Shown here: positions 15,808 to 24,074 of the stretch, in pieces | Numbering within the stretch: the first letter of the stretch is position 1 | Layout: the number at the start of each line of letters is the position of its first letter | Source: a virus | UHGV virus genome: UHGV-0149432 | Strand: one strand, 5' to 3' | DNA length: 24,124 bases | Notes under the pieces: generated by a model | Seen by the model: the letters and a program-made list of their open reading frames with translations, nothing else | The model's database searches: none | What the model was told of the DNA's origin: nothing | Translations under genes and position numbers: made by a program

Positions 15808-15837
15808 TGCCTGAAATCTACCAATGAGGACCCCAGC

Positions 15838-17034
15838 ATGAAACGCAACCGCGTTAACGTGCTGACCGTCGTCAACTCCGCTTCAAACATCACCACTGAA
15901 ACCATCGACGGCAAGCCACATATCGTGGTTCGCGGCATCACGCCTGTCGTGGACGATATCGTGATGAACCGGAAGTTGTACCCGGCAGCAGAAATCGAAA
16001 AGGCCTACAACACGCTCGAGCGTAACCCGATGCCGCTGGGCCACCCGAAAGTGGACGGCAAGCATGTGTCGGCACGTGATGTCCGGGCAGTGAATGAGTA
16101 CCACGTCGGGGCATGGCTTCAGAACGTCAGCCACAAGGACGGGAAGGTGATGGGCGACATGTACGTTAACCGCCAGTACGCCGAGTCCAGCGACAAGAGC
16201 AAGCGCCTGATTAACCGTTTGGATGAGATGCTGGCCGGCACCAACTCCGACCCGATTCACATTTCTACCGGCCTGCTGTATTCCGGCATAGCCGCCAACG
16301 GCGAATCGAAGGGCAAGAAGTACAACGAGATCGCCACCAACATGATGTTCGACCATGTGGCGGTGCTGCTTGATGAGCCTGGCGCCGGAACGCCGGAGGA
16401 GGGCGTGGGCATCTTCGTAAATGCTGAGGGTGATGAAGTCGAAATCGAGGTCGTCAATCTCGAAGAGTCCAATTCCCCAGACCAGCAAGACCCCGCATTC
16501 AAATCATTTTTCAACCAGCTAAAGGCGTTATTCGGCGCCAACAGCGATTCAACCCAGAAGGAAACAGACCCGATGAAAGAGCTCATCGTTAATGCGCTGA
16601 AGGCCAAAGGTAAATCGGTTGACGGTAAAACCGATGCCGAACTGATGGACGCATACAACCAAATGCTGGCAGAAAACGCCGGCAGCAAAGAAGAAACGCC
16701 TGAAGAGAAGGCCGCCCGTGAGAAGAAAGAAGCGGAAGACAAGAAGGCTAAAGAGCAGACCACCAACAGCGAAGAGATGCCAGCGTGGGCGAAGGTCCTT
16801 ACTGAGCAGGTCTCCGCAATTAATAGCCAGATCAATGCCAACTCTGACAAAGAGAAAGGCGAAAAGCGCGCCGCTGTAAAGCTGGCAATAAACATGAGCG
16901 ACGACGAAGTTGCAGATCTGGACGGTAAGGCGCTCGACGCCATGTACGCCAAGTGCCAGACATCTTTCGGCCTGAACGGTGCATTCCGCAACCAGGCTAC
17001 CAATACCCAATCAGTCAGCGAAATGCCGGAGTAA
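15838..17034 (+). CDS. putative head scaffolding / prohead protease-like protein
   Basis: 398-aa ORF with GAGGA SD; C-terminal half is Lys/Glu/Ala-rich and helical-looking (EEKAAREKKEAEDKKAKEQ), typical of scaffold proteins; position between morphogenesis and capsid genes. Confidence 0.6.
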   Translation: MKRNRVNVLTVVNSASNITTETIDGKPHIVVRGITPVVDDIVMNRKLYPAAEIEKAYNTLERNPMPLGHPKVDGKHVSARDVRAVNEYHVGAWLQNVSHKDGKVMGDMYVNRQYAESSDKSKRLINRLDEMLAGTNSDPIHISTGLLYSGIAANGESKGKKYNEIATNMMFDHVAVLLDEPGAGTPEEGVGIFVNAEGDEVEIEVVNLEESNSPDQQDPAFKSFFNQLKALFGANSDSTQKETDPMKELIVNALKAKGKSVDGKTDAELMDAYNQMLAENAGSKEETPEEKAAREKKEAEDKKAKEQTTNSEEMPAWAKVLTEQVSAINSQINANSDKEKGEKRAAVKLAINMSDDEVADLDGKALDAMYAKCQTSFGLNGAFRNQATNTQSVSEMPE

Positions 17035-17037
17035 AAA

Positions 17038-17481
17038 ATGGCTAAAGACGGAAAACACGTAATTCACGCGGGCGGCATTTTCGCTAACCCGCAACTTCAT
17101 CGCGAAGGTGCTGCTGCGGCAGCCACTCAGCCAGGTACTGTCGGTATTTTTGTTGATGGTAAGTTCACTGCTTCAACCGATGGCTCAGAAGCAGCAATTC
17201 ACTACGTTGCCAACTATGACTACCTGCGCTGCAAAACAGTAGACGATACAATCGCCGCTGGTGACTGGGTAGTTGCATTTCACCCCACTCCTGGTGTGTT
17301 CCTCAATTTGCGAGCAGCGGCGGGAACGTACTCAAAAGGCGATCCGGTTGCCGTGGACAATGGTCGGATCAAACTGGCAACGACTACAGGCGAAACGCCT
17401 GACACTGTGTTCGCATATGTAGAAGAAGACAAAGCGCTGACCGCTGCTGCTGGCGATCTGGTTCGCGTCGTATTCAAGTAA
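17038..17481 (+). CDS. putative head decoration / accessory capsid protein
   Basis: 147-aa Ala/Gly/Thr/Val-rich ORF immediately upstream of the major capsid gene; GGAG SD. Confidence 0.5.
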   Translation: MAKDGKHVIHAGGIFANPQLHREGAAAAATQPGTVGIFVDGKFTASTDGSEAAIHYVANYDYLRCKTVDDTIAAGDWVVAFHPTPGVFLNLRAAAGTYSKGDPVAVDNGRIKLATTTGETPDTVFAYVEEDKALTAAAGDLVRVVFK

Positions 17482-17492
17482 GGAGAGACTGA

Positions 17493-18503
17493 ATGTTTGC
17501 ATTTTCTATGAAAAAGGCGAAGGAGACCCGAAACTTTGAGGCCAACCAGGCTCAGTTTCAGGAGTTGCAATTCGCACGCAATGCTAGCGCTCAGGCTGTG
17601 GCAGATTTCATCTCCCGCGCGCAATTTCGTGGTGAGGCATCCAACGCCCCTGTACTGGATGTTGTTAATGCAGTAGACGATATCCGCCGACTGTATAAAG
17701 CGTATGACCAGACAGTACTGGCCGAGTTTGAGCCGACCACAGAGTTTACGCTACTGAATGATCTGATGCCGCTGTCCCGTTCCGTTCGTCTGGAAGAATC
17801 AGTGTACGAGTATGCCCGCAAAGGCGGACGAGGCTGGGCTCACACTTCTATGTCAGGTCAGATTGGTGCCGCTCTGGACGCGAAAAGCTACACCTTTGAC
17901 GGAACGATGGTGTCGATCCATGACAGCGGCTTTAAGTTCAACTGGCGTGATCCGGTATTCAACAAAGGTTCCGCTCTGGCATCACTGTCTGACGCTCAGG
18001 CAGGCTCTGTTGATGATGTTCGCCGTCAGTATGTGGACTATATCTGGAATGGTTTTCGCGACAGCGAAGGCAATTTCATCAAATTTGATGACTATACCTG
18101 GAAAGGGCTGCAGGCGGACGAGCGCGTTGCTCAGGTAACACTGACAGTAAACTTCGCGACCAGCACTGATCCAGACGCTATGCGTGCTGCCGCGATTGCG
18201 CTGCGCGATGTACTGAAGCTTCAAAACTATCAGTATGGCCAGCAGACCTGGCATGTGTCGGCAGAAATCATGTCCAACCTCGAGCAGTACTACGACACTC
18301 AGAATAAAACCCGCACCGTGCTGGAAGAGATTCTGAAGTTATCTGGTATTTCCGCAGTAAAAGAAGATGCTCAGTTGACCGGCAACCAGATCCTGATTGT
18401 TCCGCTGGGTGCTGGAGTTATTGCCCCCATTATTGGTCAGGCGTTCGGCACAGTAGCCGACCCGCGCCTCTTCTATAACAGCGATTATGTCTGGCGTACC
18501 TAG
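17493..18503 (+). CDS. putative major capsid protein
   Basis: 336-aa ORF with AAGGAG SD 7 nt upstream; size and position (after scaffold and decoration genes, before connector genes); ends on TAG. Confidence 0.65.
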   Translation: MFAFSMKKAKETRNFEANQAQFQELQFARNASAQAVADFISRAQFRGEASNAPVLDVVNAVDDIRRLYKAYDQTVLAEFEPTTEFTLLNDLMPLSRSVRLEESVYEYARKGGRGWAHTSMSGQIGAALDAKSYTFDGTMVSIHDSGFKFNWRDPVFNKGSALASLSDAQAGSVDDVRRQYVDYIWNGFRDSEGNFIKFDDYTWKGLQADERVAQVTLTVNFATSTDPDAMRAAAIALRDVLKLQNYQYGQQTWHVSAEIMSNLEQYYDTQNKTRTVLEEILKLSGISAVKEDAQLTGNQILIVPLGAGVIAPIIGQAFGTVADPRLFYNSDYVWRT

Positions 18504-18583
18504 GGTGCAGCTGGCCTGATGGTTAAGCAGGACATCAACGGTCACTTCTCTGTCGTTTTCGCTTCGAGCTAAGGGGGGGCGGC

Positions 18584-18792: not shown

Positions 18793-19173
18793 ATGGCTGA
18801 CCCAATCACAGCGGCAGACGTGCAGGCGTTCCCCGGTGAATTGGGTTACTCCATTCCGGGCTCGCTGCTGGAGCCGATCCTCTGCGTAGTGAACAAGATT
18901 ATCCCATGCCTCGATGGCGCGGGGTATGACGAGTGCACCGCGAAGCTGATCCTGATGTACGCCGCCGCATTGATGGCTACGTCGTCCGGCGCGCGTCGCA
19001 TCAAATCGCAGGGCGCTCCGTCTGGCGCGTCCCGCTCGTTTGAATATGGCGACGACAGCATCAACTGGCTGCGCGACTCACTGGCGAAACTCGATACCAG
19101 CGGCTGCACCGGCGACCTGCCAATCAGCGCCGGGAGCAGCGTCGGCCTGTTCATGGTGGTCGGAGGCTGCTGA
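18793..19173 (+). CDS. putative head-tail connector (gp6-like adaptor)
   Basis: 126-aa ORF in the usual connector position after the capsid gene. Confidence 0.5.
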   Translation: MADPITAADVQAFPGELGYSIPGSLLEPILCVVNKIIPCLDGAGYDECTAKLILMYAAALMATSSGARRIKSQGAPSGASRSFEYGDDSINWLRDSLAKLDTSGCTGDLPISAGSSVGLFMVVGGC

Positions 19174-19346
19174 TGACGTACAAATCAGTTAAGCACGGGC
19201 TGCCGCGCTCTTTCACCCGCGTCTGGGTGATGACCGACACCGGGCGGGAGACGACTGGCCACGTGAAATCGGATGGCGAGTGGTTCATCAACTGCCCGCG
19301 CATCCGGGCGACCGGCGCGAAGGTGCTGCGCTGGAAGGAGGGCTGA
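19173..19346 (+). CDS. hypothetical small structural-module protein (57 aa)
   Basis: ATG overlapping upstream stop (TGATG); stop overlaps the next start (TGATG); translationally coupled. Confidence 0.35.
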   Translation: MTYKSVKHGLPRSFTRVWVMTDTGRETTGHVKSDGEWFINCPRIRATGAKVLRWKEG

Positions 19347-19687
19347 TGTCGAGCATTGCTTCGTGGAGCTATACCGCCACGGCGACCATCTGGCGCAAAC
19401 TGGAAGGCAATGACGAATACGGCGACCCGCTAGGCTATGCCGAACCTGAGCAAATCATCTGTGATTACGAGGGCGGACTCAGCAAGAAGCTAGCCAGCCT
19501 GGGCGCTGAAATCGTCGTGAAGAATACCGTCTGGACGGAGTTTGCGCTGGCGGCCGCTGGTGATTACCTGCTGATTGGGGTTTCGACTGAAGCAGACCCG
19601 GTTGTGGCCGGTGCCGACGAGGTGCGCCAGGTTATATCCGCTACGCCGACACGTTCGAACGCCTGGCGGATGATTACGCCATCCTGA
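19346..19687 (+). CDS. putative head-tail joining / head closure protein
   Basis: 113-aa ORF with AAGGAGG SD; position between connector and tail-completion genes. Confidence 0.45.
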   Translation: MSSIASWSYTATATIWRKLEGNDEYGDPLGYAEPEQIICDYEGGLSKKLASLGAEIVVKNTVWTEFALAAAGDYLLIGVSTEADPVVAGADEVRQVISATPTRSNAWRMITPS

Positions 19688-19733
19688 CGGGAGTATGATA
19701 GAGTCTTCTAAACCCACGCGTTGAGAGGAATTT

Positions 19734-19907
19734 ATGTCTGAAGTCAGCGGTTACAACACTGGTAATTTCACTCCAGAGTCAGCGGGAGTTGTTGCGGATA
19801 AGCTTAATGAAATTGCAGAGCTAATTCGTAATGATCCGTCTCTTCTCATTCAGTTGGAATGGAAAGAGTCAGAGGATTCAAAAGAAATCAGCATCATGTA
19901 TAAGTAG
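19734..19907 (+). CDS. hypothetical small acidic protein (57 aa), accessory insertion
   Basis: ATG with GAGAGG SD 5 nt upstream; AT-rich; followed by an intrinsic terminator; below the track size cutoff. Confidence 0.45.
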   Translation: MSEVSGYNTGNFTPESAGVVADKLNEIAELIRNDPSLLIQLEWKESEDSKEISIMYK

Positions 19908-19925
19908 CACAACGCATTCAGATAA

Positions 19926-19949
19926 GGTCGCTAAGGCGGCCTTTTTTAT
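19926..19949 (+). terminator. Rho-independent terminator
   Basis: GGTCGC-taag-GCGGCC stem followed by TTTTTT; near-identical to the 15784 element. Confidence 0.6.
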
Positions 19950-19963
19950 TGCCTGGAGAAAAA

Positions 19964-20332
19964 ATGGGCATCAAAGTGAAGGGCGTCAACTAGGCGAAGA
20001 GGCACCTGAACACTATTGTTGGTGATATACAGGGGAGAAAAGTCGTTCGTGCTATGCAATCTGCTTTGATTATAGGCGGAACGCAGGCGGCTCTGTATAC
20101 ACCAATTGATACTTCAACCCTCATAAACAGCCAATTCAGAGAGATTACGGTGAACGGAAATCGTGTTACTGGGCGCGTTGGATACACTGCTAACTACGCC
20201 GTTTATGTCCATGATCCGAATGTACCGCAGAACTTCCGCCGGGCAACGGCCAAGAAAGAATTTCTTACTAAAGGTTTCGAAGAAACCCGGCGACAGATAG
20301 ACGCTGCAATCGCCAAGGAAATGTCGTTATGA
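19964..20332 (+). pseudogene. HK97 gp10-like tail-completion protein with in-frame amber at codon 10
   Basis: ATG at 19964 gives MGIKVKGVN then TAG (19991-19993), then the same frame continues AKRHLNTIVGDIQGRKVVRA into the track ORF 20054-20332 (ALYTPIDTSTL...VGYTANYAVYVH); typical family N-terminus is split by the stop. Confidence 0.6.
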
Positions 20333-20555
20333 CTCCTCCAATGTACGAACGAGTACGTAATCGTCGCCCAGCAGCAGAAAAGGCATAGGAAATCATCAAT
20401 TATGTCGAACAGAACGACATTGCCGATGAGTGCCTTGGCCTGATTCAAAACCTCGGGAATATGCCAGCACCACTCCTGACTGAAGAGGGACGATTGGTCT
20501 TCCGACTTCAGTTCATGTGCGTTTACGGCGAATAGCCCCCATCACCAACCCATCA

Positions 20556-20580
20556 GGCTGCCATCCGGCGGCCTTTTTTA
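20556..20580 (+). terminator. Rho-independent terminator
   Basis: GGCTGCC-atcc-GGCGGCC stem (one G.U) followed by TTTTTT. Confidence 0.55.
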
Positions 20581-20594
20581 TTTGAGAGGTACAC

Positions 20595-21404
20595 ATGCAA
20601 GGCTGTGCTAATGATTTTGGCAAGCTGATCGGGAAAGTAACTGTGCTACGCATGGCCTTTGGCTGCCCCGACGCAGTGCCAGCGCTTTCCGAGTGGAAGC
20701 GTCTCGGCGCTATGACGACCAAGGGCATCGACTATTCGATGAACACCATCAACTCCGAAGCAGATGATGCTAAAGGGCTGGTGGAGAACCTGGTCAACAA
20801 CATGGATCTGACGATCTCCGGTGAAGGTGAGTTTCGCAAGTCGGATAAAGATAACGAGATCGGCGCGTGGCGTCTGTCGAAGTACATCTTTGATGAAGTG
20901 CAGGCAGGTCGGCAGCCTAACCTTTGGGTACGCTTCGACTTCGCTGGTGAGAACGCTGGCACCTACATTCAGGGCTACATGAATACCACGTCATGGTCTG
21001 GAGACTTCGGGACCAACGACATTTCCACTTTCTCTGGTGAGTGGAAAGTTTACGACGCTGACACCGTGGTGTTCGAAGTGGCTGATTCAATCGCTGTTAC
21101 TGGTGTTGAAGTTACTCCAGCTACATTTGATAACAAAATTGCAAATGGATATTATGATGGAACAACTCGCTGGGCTTGGTCTAATACATATACAGTACAG
21201 TTAACTACAGCTAGTATTACATGTTTTGGAACAGCTAACTCTGTTAACTTTGTAAAGCCTCCGCGCCTGCCAAGTTTTACTACCGCAGGAAGGCCCGCCC
21301 TTGGTCTTGTTGACGCAGGTGCGCAGATATTAGATACAACTTTAGGTTACGCTATAACATGGACCGGATCAGTATGGAAAAATGGTACTGGGACGATAGT
21401 GTAA
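20595..21404 (+). CDS. putative major tail (tube) protein with AT-rich C-terminal extension
   Basis: 269-aa ORF with GAGAGG SD 5 nt upstream; position after the gp10-like gene; C-terminal third is compositionally distinct. Confidence 0.5.
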   Translation: MQGCANDFGKLIGKVTVLRMAFGCPDAVPALSEWKRLGAMTTKGIDYSMNTINSEADDAKGLVENLVNNMDLTISGEGEFRKSDKDNEIGAWRLSKYIFDEVQAGRQPNLWVRFDFAGENAGTYIQGYMNTTSWSGDFGTNDISTFSGEWKVYDADTVVFEVADSIAVTGVEVTPATFDNKIANGYYDGTTRWAWSNTYTVQLTTASITCFGTANSVNFVKPPRLPSFTTAGRPALGLVDAGAQILDTTLGYAITWTGSVWKNGTGTIV

Positions 21405-21432
21405 AAACAGGCCGCGTTCGCGGCCTGTTTTT
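21403..21432. terminator. bidirectional Rho-independent terminator
   Basis: AAAAA-CAGGCCGC-gttc-GCGGCCTG-TTTTT between the convergent major tail gene and gtrC. Confidence 0.65.
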
Positions 21433-23131
21433 ATTCAGATAATAATTTTAATGTCTTAGCATTATTGTATAGTTCATTCCATTGAGGGTACATATTAACT
21501 ATGTTTTTTATAAAATCTTGGGACTCAGACTCAGTAAATGGCCTCTGCTTTTCATAGATATATGCAGAAACCCCTTTACTTAGTTGATATTTTTCATCAA
21601 GTTTTTTATATGCCGAACCTATACCTTTTCTATTTAACAATAAGGTCGCAGGGTAAGAGATGACCCTTTGTCCGTCCTTGTTTAAATGCAACTGTATGGG
21701 GTTAGTAACCACAACATATTTTGTGGAGAAAGCTTCCATCCTGAGTTTATCGCGCAAATCTACTTGAGATACACGGAATACACGAGGGGTAAGCTTGAAA
21801 TTAGATATTGTAAGTAACATATCATCATTTAAGATGTAGTTAGAGCTAAATACAGATATTTTATCGCCACTATTCGTAAGGGCTACAAGTCTATCACTCA
21901 GCCTTTTGTACTCGTCGAAATTGGAAACTTTATATGGGTATAATCCATCAGGAAATATATGGAAGCCATTTTTATAAGAAGGGAATGGTTTGTTAAAAGT
22001 GCTAACAGATATAAGCGTCATGCCTACCATAATTATGGTAAGTAAAGAATGTTCGGCATCCTTGCTCTTGAATAATGATGATATGTAATTTAGCCCAAAA
22101 ATAGAAACAAACAAGAACCACAGAGAGAATGGTAGAACATGATGAATGCCGGGTGTCTGAGTACCAGTAAATAATAGTACACTGATAACAAACGAGAAAG
22201 CAGAGAAAAGAACAAAAACGCTTTGCTTTGTTTTAATGTTTGAAATGGCACTAATTATGCCAAATATAAAAAATGGCATCATAAACAAACCAATATCTCC
22301 AAAAATCACCATAAGTGATTTTGAGAATCCATATTGGTAAGCTGAATACATGGTTGAGTAATCTGTAGATATTATTCTGGCTATTAACTCTTTCTGAATT
22401 AATAATGCAAGGGCAACAGTGATTATTCCTGAGATGAAAAAGTTAATCAATATGTTTTTTGCTTTGTTTAACTCGAACTTAAACTTAACATCATGATAAT
22501 AAGCCACAAAAAAAGGCAAGGTTATATATAAGGTGATGACCGTAAATATATACCATCTTCTAAATGCAAATGGCATCCATAACAGAATGCCGAGAAAAAC
22601 TGATTTAAATAACAATACTCTGTTTGATAAGTTATTTTTTATCGTAAAATAAATCACACAGAGAATAGGTATCAGTCCGACAACATCAGGCAAACCTCTA
22701 AGAGTTGGTTTCCAGAATGGAGTATATAATACAACAAGAATAGCTGTTGTTATTACATAGAATGCTGACTTGTTTTCAAATATTTTTAATAAAATAAATG
22801 TTGCCAATAAAATTACAGGGATTAAATATGTAATGGTTATAGCGTATATGTAAGCACTTCTTGAGTCGATGGGCAGAAATTTAAATGGAAATAATAATGC
22901 TGTAGACAGAGCGTTATAGTCATCCTTTGTTACTGTTGTATAAACAGACATGCCCCAGTCCAACGGGCTCTGGAACAACAGATCGGCGTATCTCATCCAT
23001 TGCATCCAAAAATTTTTGGAGTCCCAAAAGTACACGCTCTGTTCATTACCCATGAATACATGCACATTTAACAGAGCTAAAACTAACACAATCACAAAGG
23101 ATATAAAATATACTTTATTATTCTTTGTCAT
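21431..23131 (-). CDS. gtrC: GtrC-type serotype-specific O-antigen glucosyltransferase (polytopic membrane protein)
   Basis: 566-aa AT-rich ORF with many hydrophobic segments and a hydrophilic C-terminal domain; start overlaps the gtrB stop by 14 nt; canonical gtrA-gtrB-gtrC order. Confidence 0.65.
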   Translation of the reverse strand: MTKNNKVYFISFVIVLVLALLNVHVFMGNEQSVYFWDSKNFWMQWMRYADLLFQSPLDWGMSVYTTVTKDDYNALSTALLFPFKFLPIDSRSAYIYAITITYLIPVILLATFILLKIFENKSAFYVITTAILVVLYTPFWKPTLRGLPDVVGLIPILCVIYFTIKNNLSNRVLLFKSVFLGILLWMPFAFRRWYIFTVITLYITLPFFVAYYHDVKFKFELNKAKNILINFFISGIITVALALLIQKELIARIISTDYSTMYSAYQYGFSKSLMVIFGDIGLFMMPFFIFGIISAISNIKTKQSVFVLFSAFSFVISVLLFTGTQTPGIHHVLPFSLWFLFVSIFGLNYISSLFKSKDAEHSLLTIIMVGMTLISVSTFNKPFPSYKNGFHIFPDGLYPYKVSNFDEYKRLSDRLVALTNSGDKISVFSSNYILNDDMLLTISNFKLTPRVFRVSQVDLRDKLRMEAFSTKYVVVTNPIQLHLNKDGQRVISYPATLLLNRKGIGSAYKKLDEKYQLSKGVSAYIYEKQRPFTESESQDFIKNIVNMYPQWNELYNNAKTLKLLSE

Positions 23132-24074
23132 TTTCCGTTACCTCAGAAATAAAAAACTTTGGTCTTTTTTTACTTTCAATATATATCTTACCAATATACT
23201 CGCCAATCACACCAAGGCAGAGCATTTGAACTCCACCTATAAATAGTACAGCTAAAATCATCGACGCCCATCCACTAACAGTATGTCCAAGAAAATACTG
23301 GGCAAGAGTATATATAACTCCAATTGATGAAAGTATAGAGATAATAAAACCTAAAGCGGTTACGATCCTCAACGGAGTTACTGAGAACGATGTGATTCCT
23401 TCAAGGGCAAGAGCCAGCATTTTTCTGAGCGGGTACTTTGATTCTCCTGCCGCTCGCTCATGACGAGAATAGTACACTTTATCACTTGGATATCCGATCA
23501 GGGGGATAAGACCCCGAATATATAGGTTTTGTTCTTTATACTGTAAAAGGGAGTTGAGCGCCCTTCGACTTAACAGCCTAAAATCAGCATGATTTTCAAC
23601 CTGATTTACACCAAGCCTGGTCATTACCTTATAGAATGCTTCTGCTGTAAACTTCTTAAAAAAACTATCTGAGGTTCTGTCGTTCCTTACTCCGTATACT
23701 ATGTCGTGACCAGAGAGATAGGAGTCAACCATTTTTTCAATCACAGCGGTGTCATCTTGCAAGTCAGCATCAATACTTACAGTAATGTCAGATGTAGTGC
23801 ATGATGATAACCCTGCCATCAATGCAGTCTGATGGCCTTTATTTCGTGAAAGTTTTACCCCTTTCACCAGACAACTGTCACTTGATGCTTCTTCTATTAA
23901 TCGCCAGGTATTATCTTTGCTTCCATCATCAACAAAGACTATATGACTTTCTCTATCTATTTTCCCTTTGTCTTTCATTTCACTCATACGAGATGATAAC
24001 TCATTAAGACAAAGGCTAAAAACATCTTGCTCATTATAGCAAGGCACAACAATGGAAAGAACAGGCGCTTTCAT
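23118..24074 (-). CDS. gtrB: bactoprenol glucosyltransferase GtrB (GT2 family)
   Basis: 318-aa product; N-terminus MKAPVLSIVVPCYNEQDV, DDGSKD and DADLQDD motifs, two C-terminal transmembrane segments; strong resemblance to GtrB/ArnC-like GT2 enzymes. Confidence 0.9.
   Translation of the reverse strand: MKAPVLSIVVPCYNEQDVFSLCLNELSSRMSEMKDKGKIDRESHIVFVDDGSKDNTWRLIEEASSDSCLVKGVKLSRNKGHQTALMAGLSSCTTSDITVSIDADLQDDTAVIEKMVDSYLSGHDIVYGVRNDRTSDSFFKKFTAEAFYKVMTRLGVNQVENHADFRLLSRRALNSLLQYKEQNLYIRGLIPLIGYPSDKVYYSRHERAAGESKYPLRKMLALALEGITSFSVTPLRIVTALGFIISILSSIGVIYTLAQYFLGHTVSGWASMILAVLFIGGVQMLCLGVIGEYIGKIYIESKKRPKFFISEVTENDKE

Follow-up and report, generated by a model that had tools for sequence, protein, structure and literature searches.

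Introduction

Among the cryptic lambdoid prophages of enterobacteria, of which the decayed prophages of Escherichia coli K-12 are examples, the recurring features are a flanking integrase, nonsense, frameshift and deletion lesions, the loss of modules and deletions that vary between strains. All of these are seen at the locus described here, a remnant in the chromosome of Citrobacter koseri that was analyzed in a stretch of 24,124 nucleotides (virus genome UHGV-0149432; this whole stretch is referred to as the window), and like such prophages it has kept a cargo module beneficial to the host, here gtr. The gene on which we focus resembles the HK97 gp10-like or Neck1 proteins of siphoviruses (PHROG 5; PF04883) in its size of about 122 aa, its match to PHROG 5 and its position; it differs from them in being broken at codon 10, and is not expected to yield a protein. 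The third system of relevance is Dcm, which methylates the inner cytosine of CCWGG: Coulondre, Miller, Farabaugh and Gilbert are said to have reported in 1978 that amber hotspots in E. coli lacI fall at Dcm CCAGG sites and arise by deamination of 5-methylcytosine.

We conclude that the gp10-like gene was interrupted by a one-step change of CAG (Gln10) to TAG, very probably a neutral one, in a lambdoid prophage that is fixed in the C. koseri chromosome and very probably can no longer form virions. Cryptic lambdoid prophages are already known to contain ordinary nonsense pseudogenes of this sort; such modest interest as the locus has lies in the additional lesions surrounding this gene, in the order in which they can be placed, and in the sequence context of the ambers.

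Results

The Reading Frame of the gp10-Like Gene Is Interrupted at Codon 10

The original prediction described a frame opening at ATG 19964 with MGIKVKGVN, meeting a TAG, and staying open beyond it, and each of these elements is present in the DNA: behind the TAG the same frame continues with AKRHLNTIVGDIQGRKVVRA, the in-frame sequence starting AKRHLNTIVGDIQGRKVVRAMQ, and it is open until the TGA at 20330–20332 (table 1). The further claim that the ATG at codon 31 has no Shine–Dalgarno sequence nearby also holds, the nearest GGAG (20034–20037) lying 16 nt upstream and thus beyond the usual spacing. The upstream sequence TTTATTGCCTGGAGAA is also found in the intact alleles L071, L072, L074, L024, and L030.

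Table 1.— Coordinates of the Features Discussed, in Positions of the Window
Feature	Position	Strand	Description
phoP (chromosomal)	50–724	−	Response_reg + Trans_reg_C; left boundary of the remnant
Prophage integrase	795–2081	−	Arm-DNA-bind_2 + Phage_integrase
ninG	6386–6948	+	ORF without the first 39 Pfam profile positions; N-terminal residues in another frame (6386–6460)
Late-gene antiterminator Q	7082–7765	+	Amber 7385–7387, TGG>TAG, CCTGG>CCTAG
Major capsid gene (MCP)	17493–18572	+	Amber 18501–18503, TGG>TAG, CCTGG>CCTAG
phrog_797 head–tail joining region gene	19346–19698	+	+2 (AT) frameshift at 19636–19637
57-aa moron-like ORF	19734–19907	+	Between neck gene and gp10-like gene
Intrinsic-terminator-like hairpin + T-run	19924–19953 (hairpin 19924–19943)	+	8-bp stem, 5 GC pairs, T tail
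Shine–Dalgarno GGAG	19955–19958	+	5-nt spacer to the true start ATG 19964–19966
gp10-like/tail-completion (PHROG 5) pseudogene	19964–20332	+	369 bp, 122 codons, codon 10 = TAG
In-frame amber	19991–19993	+	CAG (Gln10) to TAG, single C>T; inner C of CCAGG, now CTAGG
Internal ATG (Met31, codon 31)	20054–20056	+	Start of called 92-aa ORF 20054–20332; not conserved as start
Tail terminator pseudogene	20329–20535	+	In-frame 177-bp (59-codon) deletion + amber 20386–20388 (CAG>TAG)
Chimeric 269-aa ORF	20595–21404	+	Codons 1–177 major tail protein; unrelated sequence from 21125
gtrC-like (566 aa, membrane protein) + gtrB-like (318 aa, GT2, PF00535)	21431–24074	−	O-antigen modification genes

Alignment with intact members of the family gave the same Met1 and a sense codon at position 10. 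A tblastn search found 322 phage records, 314 of which cover at least 80% of the query, beginning at residue 1, and the 44 genomic homologs start at the same Met with a GGAG-like motif in front of it; their codon 10 most commonly encodes Gln (CAG or CAA), and otherwise Glu, Lys, Arg, or Asp. The length of the protein is likewise constant: 1676 database proteins match at E ≤ 1e-20, and the top 120 of these are all of 122 aa except for one of 139 aa. Since K4, G7, R29, and A30 are invariant in an alignment of 24 sequences, the N-terminal 30 residues are part of the protein. Residue 31 is Met in the closest alleles only and Leu, Ile, or Val elsewhere, indicating that Met31 is not a conserved start.

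The closest relatives are intact 122-aa alleles in C. koseri itself (P0001–P0010), which share 95–99% protein identity and all have Gln10; across the gene, the DNA of the intact C. koseri prophage alleles is 97.8–98.7% identical. The context of codon 10 is AAC CAG GCG in four of these prophages (L071–L074) and AGT CAG GCG in a fifth (L075), where the window reads AAC TAG GCG: a single C>T change that created a nonsense codon thus accounts for the difference, and the start has not been mis-called. The amber that had been predicted within the gp10-like gene is thus genuine, and the function of the gene has presumably been lost, as judged from the sequence; some natural readthrough of the UAG at a low level, or a restart of translation at Met31, may occur.

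Family Assignment and Gene Order

When the stop is replaced by Gln, the resulting protein of 122 residues matches PHROG 5, "tail completion or Neck1", over residues 1–120 (E = 2.5e-19, 71 bits). Pfam, including PF04883 (HK97-gp10_like), gave no match to the family even at E ≤ 10, the only hits being spurious ones to CagZ and DUF2977, and the NCBIfam model for HK97 gp10 gave none at E ≤ 0.01. Near-identical proteins carry the NCBI name "HK97 gp10 family phage protein", and the NCBI naming rule is therefore looser than, or different from, the NCBIfam scan run here. A profile search of PDB sequences detected no relative among solved structures, and an AlphaFold2 model built from a shallow alignment (24 sequences, 86–99% identical) reached a mean pLDDT of 39, too low for the model to be of use. 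The gp10-like label is supported by the PHROG 5 match, by synteny and by the name given to near-identical proteins, and should be read as a sequence-based assignment.

Synteny was compared in phages and prophages of Klebsiella, Erwinia, E. coli, and Citrobacter. The 369-bp gene overlaps a 384-bp tail terminator gene by 4 nt, and behind these come the genes for the major tail protein, the chaperone, and the tape measure; every intact relative has the 122-aa gene overlapping with a terminator gene that encodes 127 aa (PF23842), with the major tail gene behind it. The position in the window is the corresponding one, between the head–tail connector genes and the tail terminator and major tail genes. 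The intact relatives keep the full tail module after the gp10-like gene, including DUF6246, tape measure and distal tail genes.

The terminator-like hairpin lies just upstream of the gp10-like gene and downstream of the 57-aa ORF, and its tail, together with the GGAG upstream sequence, is common to the intact prophages L071, L072, and L074. The corresponding spot is occupied in some intact C. koseri prophages by an ORF of 71 aa, accompanied by this hairpin tail and GGAG, and in others by nothing. The stretch 19925–19961 is a 94.6% match to Edwardsiella phage GF-2.

Lesions Elsewhere in the Prophage

The census of lesions was taken by mapping the proteins of an intact E. coli relative onto the window, followed by comparisons with Pfam and with C. 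koseri prophages that are intact. This gave four ambers, two frameshifts and one internal deletion of 177 bp; in all there are at least eight lesions. The original prediction had counted the amber in the gp10-like gene as the second TAG to lie in the frame of a late gene, independent of the first, which is right but understated, homology mapping giving four TAGs; the one counted as the first is probably that in the MCP gene.

In the antiterminator gene Q, HQKAW is replaced by HQKA and a stop, with the Pfam Q profile matched over positions 1–100 before the TAG and 102–218 after it; one copy (L006) has an extra 8-bp deletion just upstream of the amber site. The defect in ninG is likely a frameshift or a small deletion. 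The product of the phrog_797 gene is divided between two frames, with residues 1–102 in one and 97–116 in another. In the tail terminator gene the deletion is of exactly 177 bp, with a 4-bp overlap at the junction (20358–20361; mapped against L072), and the match of the remnant to PF23842 is limited to profile positions 70–125 of 125. Relative to Gifsy-2, the early region is short by about 7 kb.

The most extensive loss is seen at the chimeric ORF. Its codons 1–177 are 97% identical to an E. coli prophage homolog, the match stopping at residue 177 of 251 (positions 1–178 of 254 for phrog_853), and the DNA homology to intact C. koseri prophages stops at 21124. Comparison of the window with the intact relatives showed that the genes for the chaperone, the tape measure, the distal tail and the fibre are all absent after this fused ORF, which marks a deletion that took out the whole tail module. 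That its last 93 codons represent the C-terminus of a tail fibre is no more than a guess: tblastn against phages found nothing, and the only support is a weak match to phrog_20787 over the last 43 residues.

Two further elements were observed in the vicinity of these genes. Directly downstream of Q, at 7781–7857 on the plus strand, the Rfam family isrJ, an Hfq-binding sRNA, is matched with 55.5 bits against a gathering score of 37; in lambdoid phages this place is that of the short late-promoter transcript. A second terminator-like hairpin with a T-run is found at 20555–20574, also on the plus strand, in the interval that separates the terminator pseudogene from the major tail gene.

Chromosomal Setting

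Exact-protein look-ups with the unique chimeric 269-aa ORF, covering 69 index blocks with 24 contigs read, were used to find further copies. The remnant is present in complete genomes and, across studies unrelated to one another, in clinical isolates and in metagenomes of the human gut, and is always arranged as roxA-phoQ-phoP-int ... gtrCBA-purB-hflD-mnmA-nudJ-rluE-icd. The order roxA-phoQ-phoP-int at the left end is seen in L007; at the right, the gtrC-like and gtrB-like genes directly adjoin the truncated tail gene, and GtrA (PF04138) comes next in L006 and L007, beyond the window, followed by purB-hflD-mnmA-nudJ-rluE-icd. Between the neighboring purB and its E. coli counterpart the identity is only 89.5%. 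L006 is CP052059.1, the genome of C. koseri SCAID-URN1-2019 (PMC10269928). A scan of representative genomes showed the remnant to be absent from the representative of the species C. koseri.

The element has an integrase at one junction and is flanked by host genes at either end; several of its essential genes are inactivated and an essential module is lost, and together these features characterize it as a defective prophage. The retention of the gtr genes may explain why it has persisted. In L006, gtrC is split into ORFs of 339 and 153 aa (10837–12358).

Distribution of the Lesions and Order of Decay

Lesions were genotyped in 12 copies, taken from isolate genomes, infant-gut metagenomes and SRA-derived contigs. 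Three lesions are present in 12/12: the gp10-like TAG, the deletion in the terminator gene, and the junction at which the tail gene is fused. Other lesions are polymorphic: L006 has TGG at the MCP site, with an MCP of 359 aa, and does not have the two-base AT insertion in the phrog_797 gene, and the terminator amber site is CAG in L006, L014, and L016. Large internal deletions differ by strain (L007, L008, L009), L007, for example, being without 5125–17951. Across the segment 19734–23131 the copies do not differ at all, against a pS of ~0.02 for housekeeping genes; the presence of the gp10-like TAG in every copy therefore goes back to one common ancestor and does not represent 12 events. The decay of the prophage is stepwise and ongoing, and on the sequences compared the gp10-like amber belongs to its oldest layer, common to all sampled copies.

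It should be noted that the remnant is a mosaic. Between L005 and L006 the 3.4-kb segment 19734–23131 is identical, whereas the segment from DUF7370 to phrog_797 (18793–19690) has a pS of 0.16–0.27, and this contrast between neighbors indicates recombinational exchange inside the dead prophage. A test for relaxed selection using dN/dS between C. koseri lineages was uninformative, as 19734–23131 has zero differences; the neighboring segments, with a pS of 0.16–0.27 against 0.02 for housekeeping genes, are recombinational imports, so that their dN/dS reflects history in functional phages.

Sequence Context of the Ambers

That all four in-frame stops are TAG is expected and nothing special, because CAG and TGG are common in the codon usage: 57% of the transition-type nonsense targets in the affected genes give TAG, and four of four would be TAG with P = 0.10. 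Their immediate context, by contrast, is not random. CCWGG is the site of three of these ambers, the exception being the terminator amber at ACAGG, which is not a Dcm site, and this context is shared by 21 of 354 (6%) transition-nonsense targets (P = 0.0008 for at least three of four; P = 0.004 when conditioned on targets that produce TAG), these values being optimistic as the test was conceived after the sequence context had been seen. The likeliest origin of these three ambers, which we propose with moderate confidence from the motifs at which they lie, is spontaneous deamination of 5-methylcytosine at putative Dcm sites, escaping very-short-patch repair, because the base changed in the gp10-like gene is the inner C of CCAGG (now CTAGG) and the MCP and Q ambers are the mirror-image CCTGG>CCTAG.

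Substitutions outside the ambers showed no such pattern. Between lineages there was no excess at CCWGG (3 of 84 target columns against a background of 2.3%, P = 0.30), and among near-identical copies none of about 21 recent SNPs fell at Dcm targets, both comparisons being of low power. These data fit only a moderate Dcm hotspot, of roughly 10–20×. A search of the literature on Dcm in C. koseri found nothing specific. That host Dcm methylation could be the main source of the point mutations inactivating the prophage is a broader suggestion, which we put forward tentatively and hold with less confidence than the origin of the ambers themselves.

Alternative Explanations

Several other accounts of the TAG were weighed. 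A functional gene with a later start, at Met31 (92 aa) or by reinitiation after the early stop, would agree with the 92-aa ORF called by gene callers in 18 contigs and the 108-aa ORF in two NCBI genomes, and with the Met31 of the closest alleles. We regard it as very improbable: all homologs examined begin at Met1 and none starts at the position of Met 20054, the first 30 residues are conserved and residue 31 is not, the GGAG nearest to this ATG is badly placed, and the partner tail genes are deleted, so that a product would have nothing to complete. An artefact of sequencing or assembly, such as a nanopore base-calling error at Dcm-methylated CCWGG, which is known to be of a systematic kind, has to be considered as three of four ambers fall exactly at such targets, and CCWGG motifs were reported behind most cases in which Illumina and ONT data disagree (PMC8106442). 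This explanation is even less probable, the recurrence of an identical gp10-like TAG in 12/12 independent assemblies of varied source ruling out the error at this codon that the original prediction had allowed for; the MCP and terminator sites segregate by lineage and not by data source, and Dcm targets account for none of the roughly 21 further differences between copies that are nearly identical.

The original prediction also implied late genes dependent on suppression or recoding, and the use of TAG at all four in-frame stops, each in an otherwise well-conserved frame, could be taken to mean that the ambers are read through, by a suppressor tRNA of host or phage, by programmed readthrough or by reassignment of TAG, leaving the late genes conditionally functional. 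This part of the prediction is unsupported, and we consider readthrough of this kind highly improbable. Four TAGs of four are what codon usage and transition bias would give, and the window contains neither a tRNA gene nor a recoding RNA family; at each of the four positions homologs carry a sense codon, and TGG or CAG is retained in sister lineages, so that the ambers are recent mutations and not a conserved signal, and the frameshifts, the 177-bp deletion, and the missing tail module are beyond rescue by any such means. Least probable of all is a laboratory origin: although multiple ambers in essential late genes recall the classical conditional-lethal phage stocks, a multi-amber mutant or engineered lysogen would not be expected in clinical isolates and human gut metagenomes of unrelated studies, fixed at a single chromosomal site and with natural polymorphism in its lesions and deletions. 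A capsid-forming satellite, with a head but without tail genes, was considered as the nature of the whole element and rejected: a lambdoid early and lysis region is present, the MCP amber is present in those strains whose head module is complete, and L006, the sole copy seen with an intact MCP, is without terminase and portal.

Discussion

The neutral nonsense mutation in a prophage unable to form virions thus remains our preferred explanation, and its consequences can be outlined as follows. With Q broken, antitermination of the late operon would fail; the damage to the capsid, neck and terminator genes, together with the deletion of the tail module, would prevent any virion from forming. The gp10-like gene would then be left without partners or function and would not be under selection, and the amber would be neutral: it would persist because nothing selects against an amber in a dead prophage. 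Ribosomes starting at ATG 19964 would release a peptide of nine residues, and any 92-residue product from Met31, itself unlikely, would be without the conserved N-terminal 30 residues and would find no tail to complete. As the tail module is deleted and Q is broken, complementation or suppressor tests would restore nothing.

For annotation, this means that the locus should be described as a pseudogene in a defective C. koseri prophage and not as a "hypothetical protein" of 92 or 108 aa. Beyond annotation the gp10-like TAG itself is of little importance, and it should not be read as pointing to amber suppression or recoding. The remnant as a whole, of which we found no description at phoP/purB in C. 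koseri, is of modest wider use as a clean and population-sampled case of a prophage decaying step by step, in which the lesions can be placed in temporal order and the gtr genes have been kept. The three ambers at CCWGG provide a cheap hypothesis on methylation-driven pseudogenization, open to a genome-wide test in thousands of cryptic prophages; if it is true, Gln and Trp codons within CCWGG would be "fragile codons" that bias the death of prophages in Dcm-positive enterobacteria.

Compared with the known systems, the ambers resemble the Dcm hotspots of E. coli lacI in that three of the four are CAG>TAG at CCAGG or TGG>TAG at CCTGG; they differ in that the pattern is drawn here from four natural mutations, with the other SNPs showing no detectable excess at CCWGG. 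With respect to known cryptic prophages, the remnant is set apart by the state of its structural genes: its head module is unusually complete in some strains, whereas its tail module is entirely gone.
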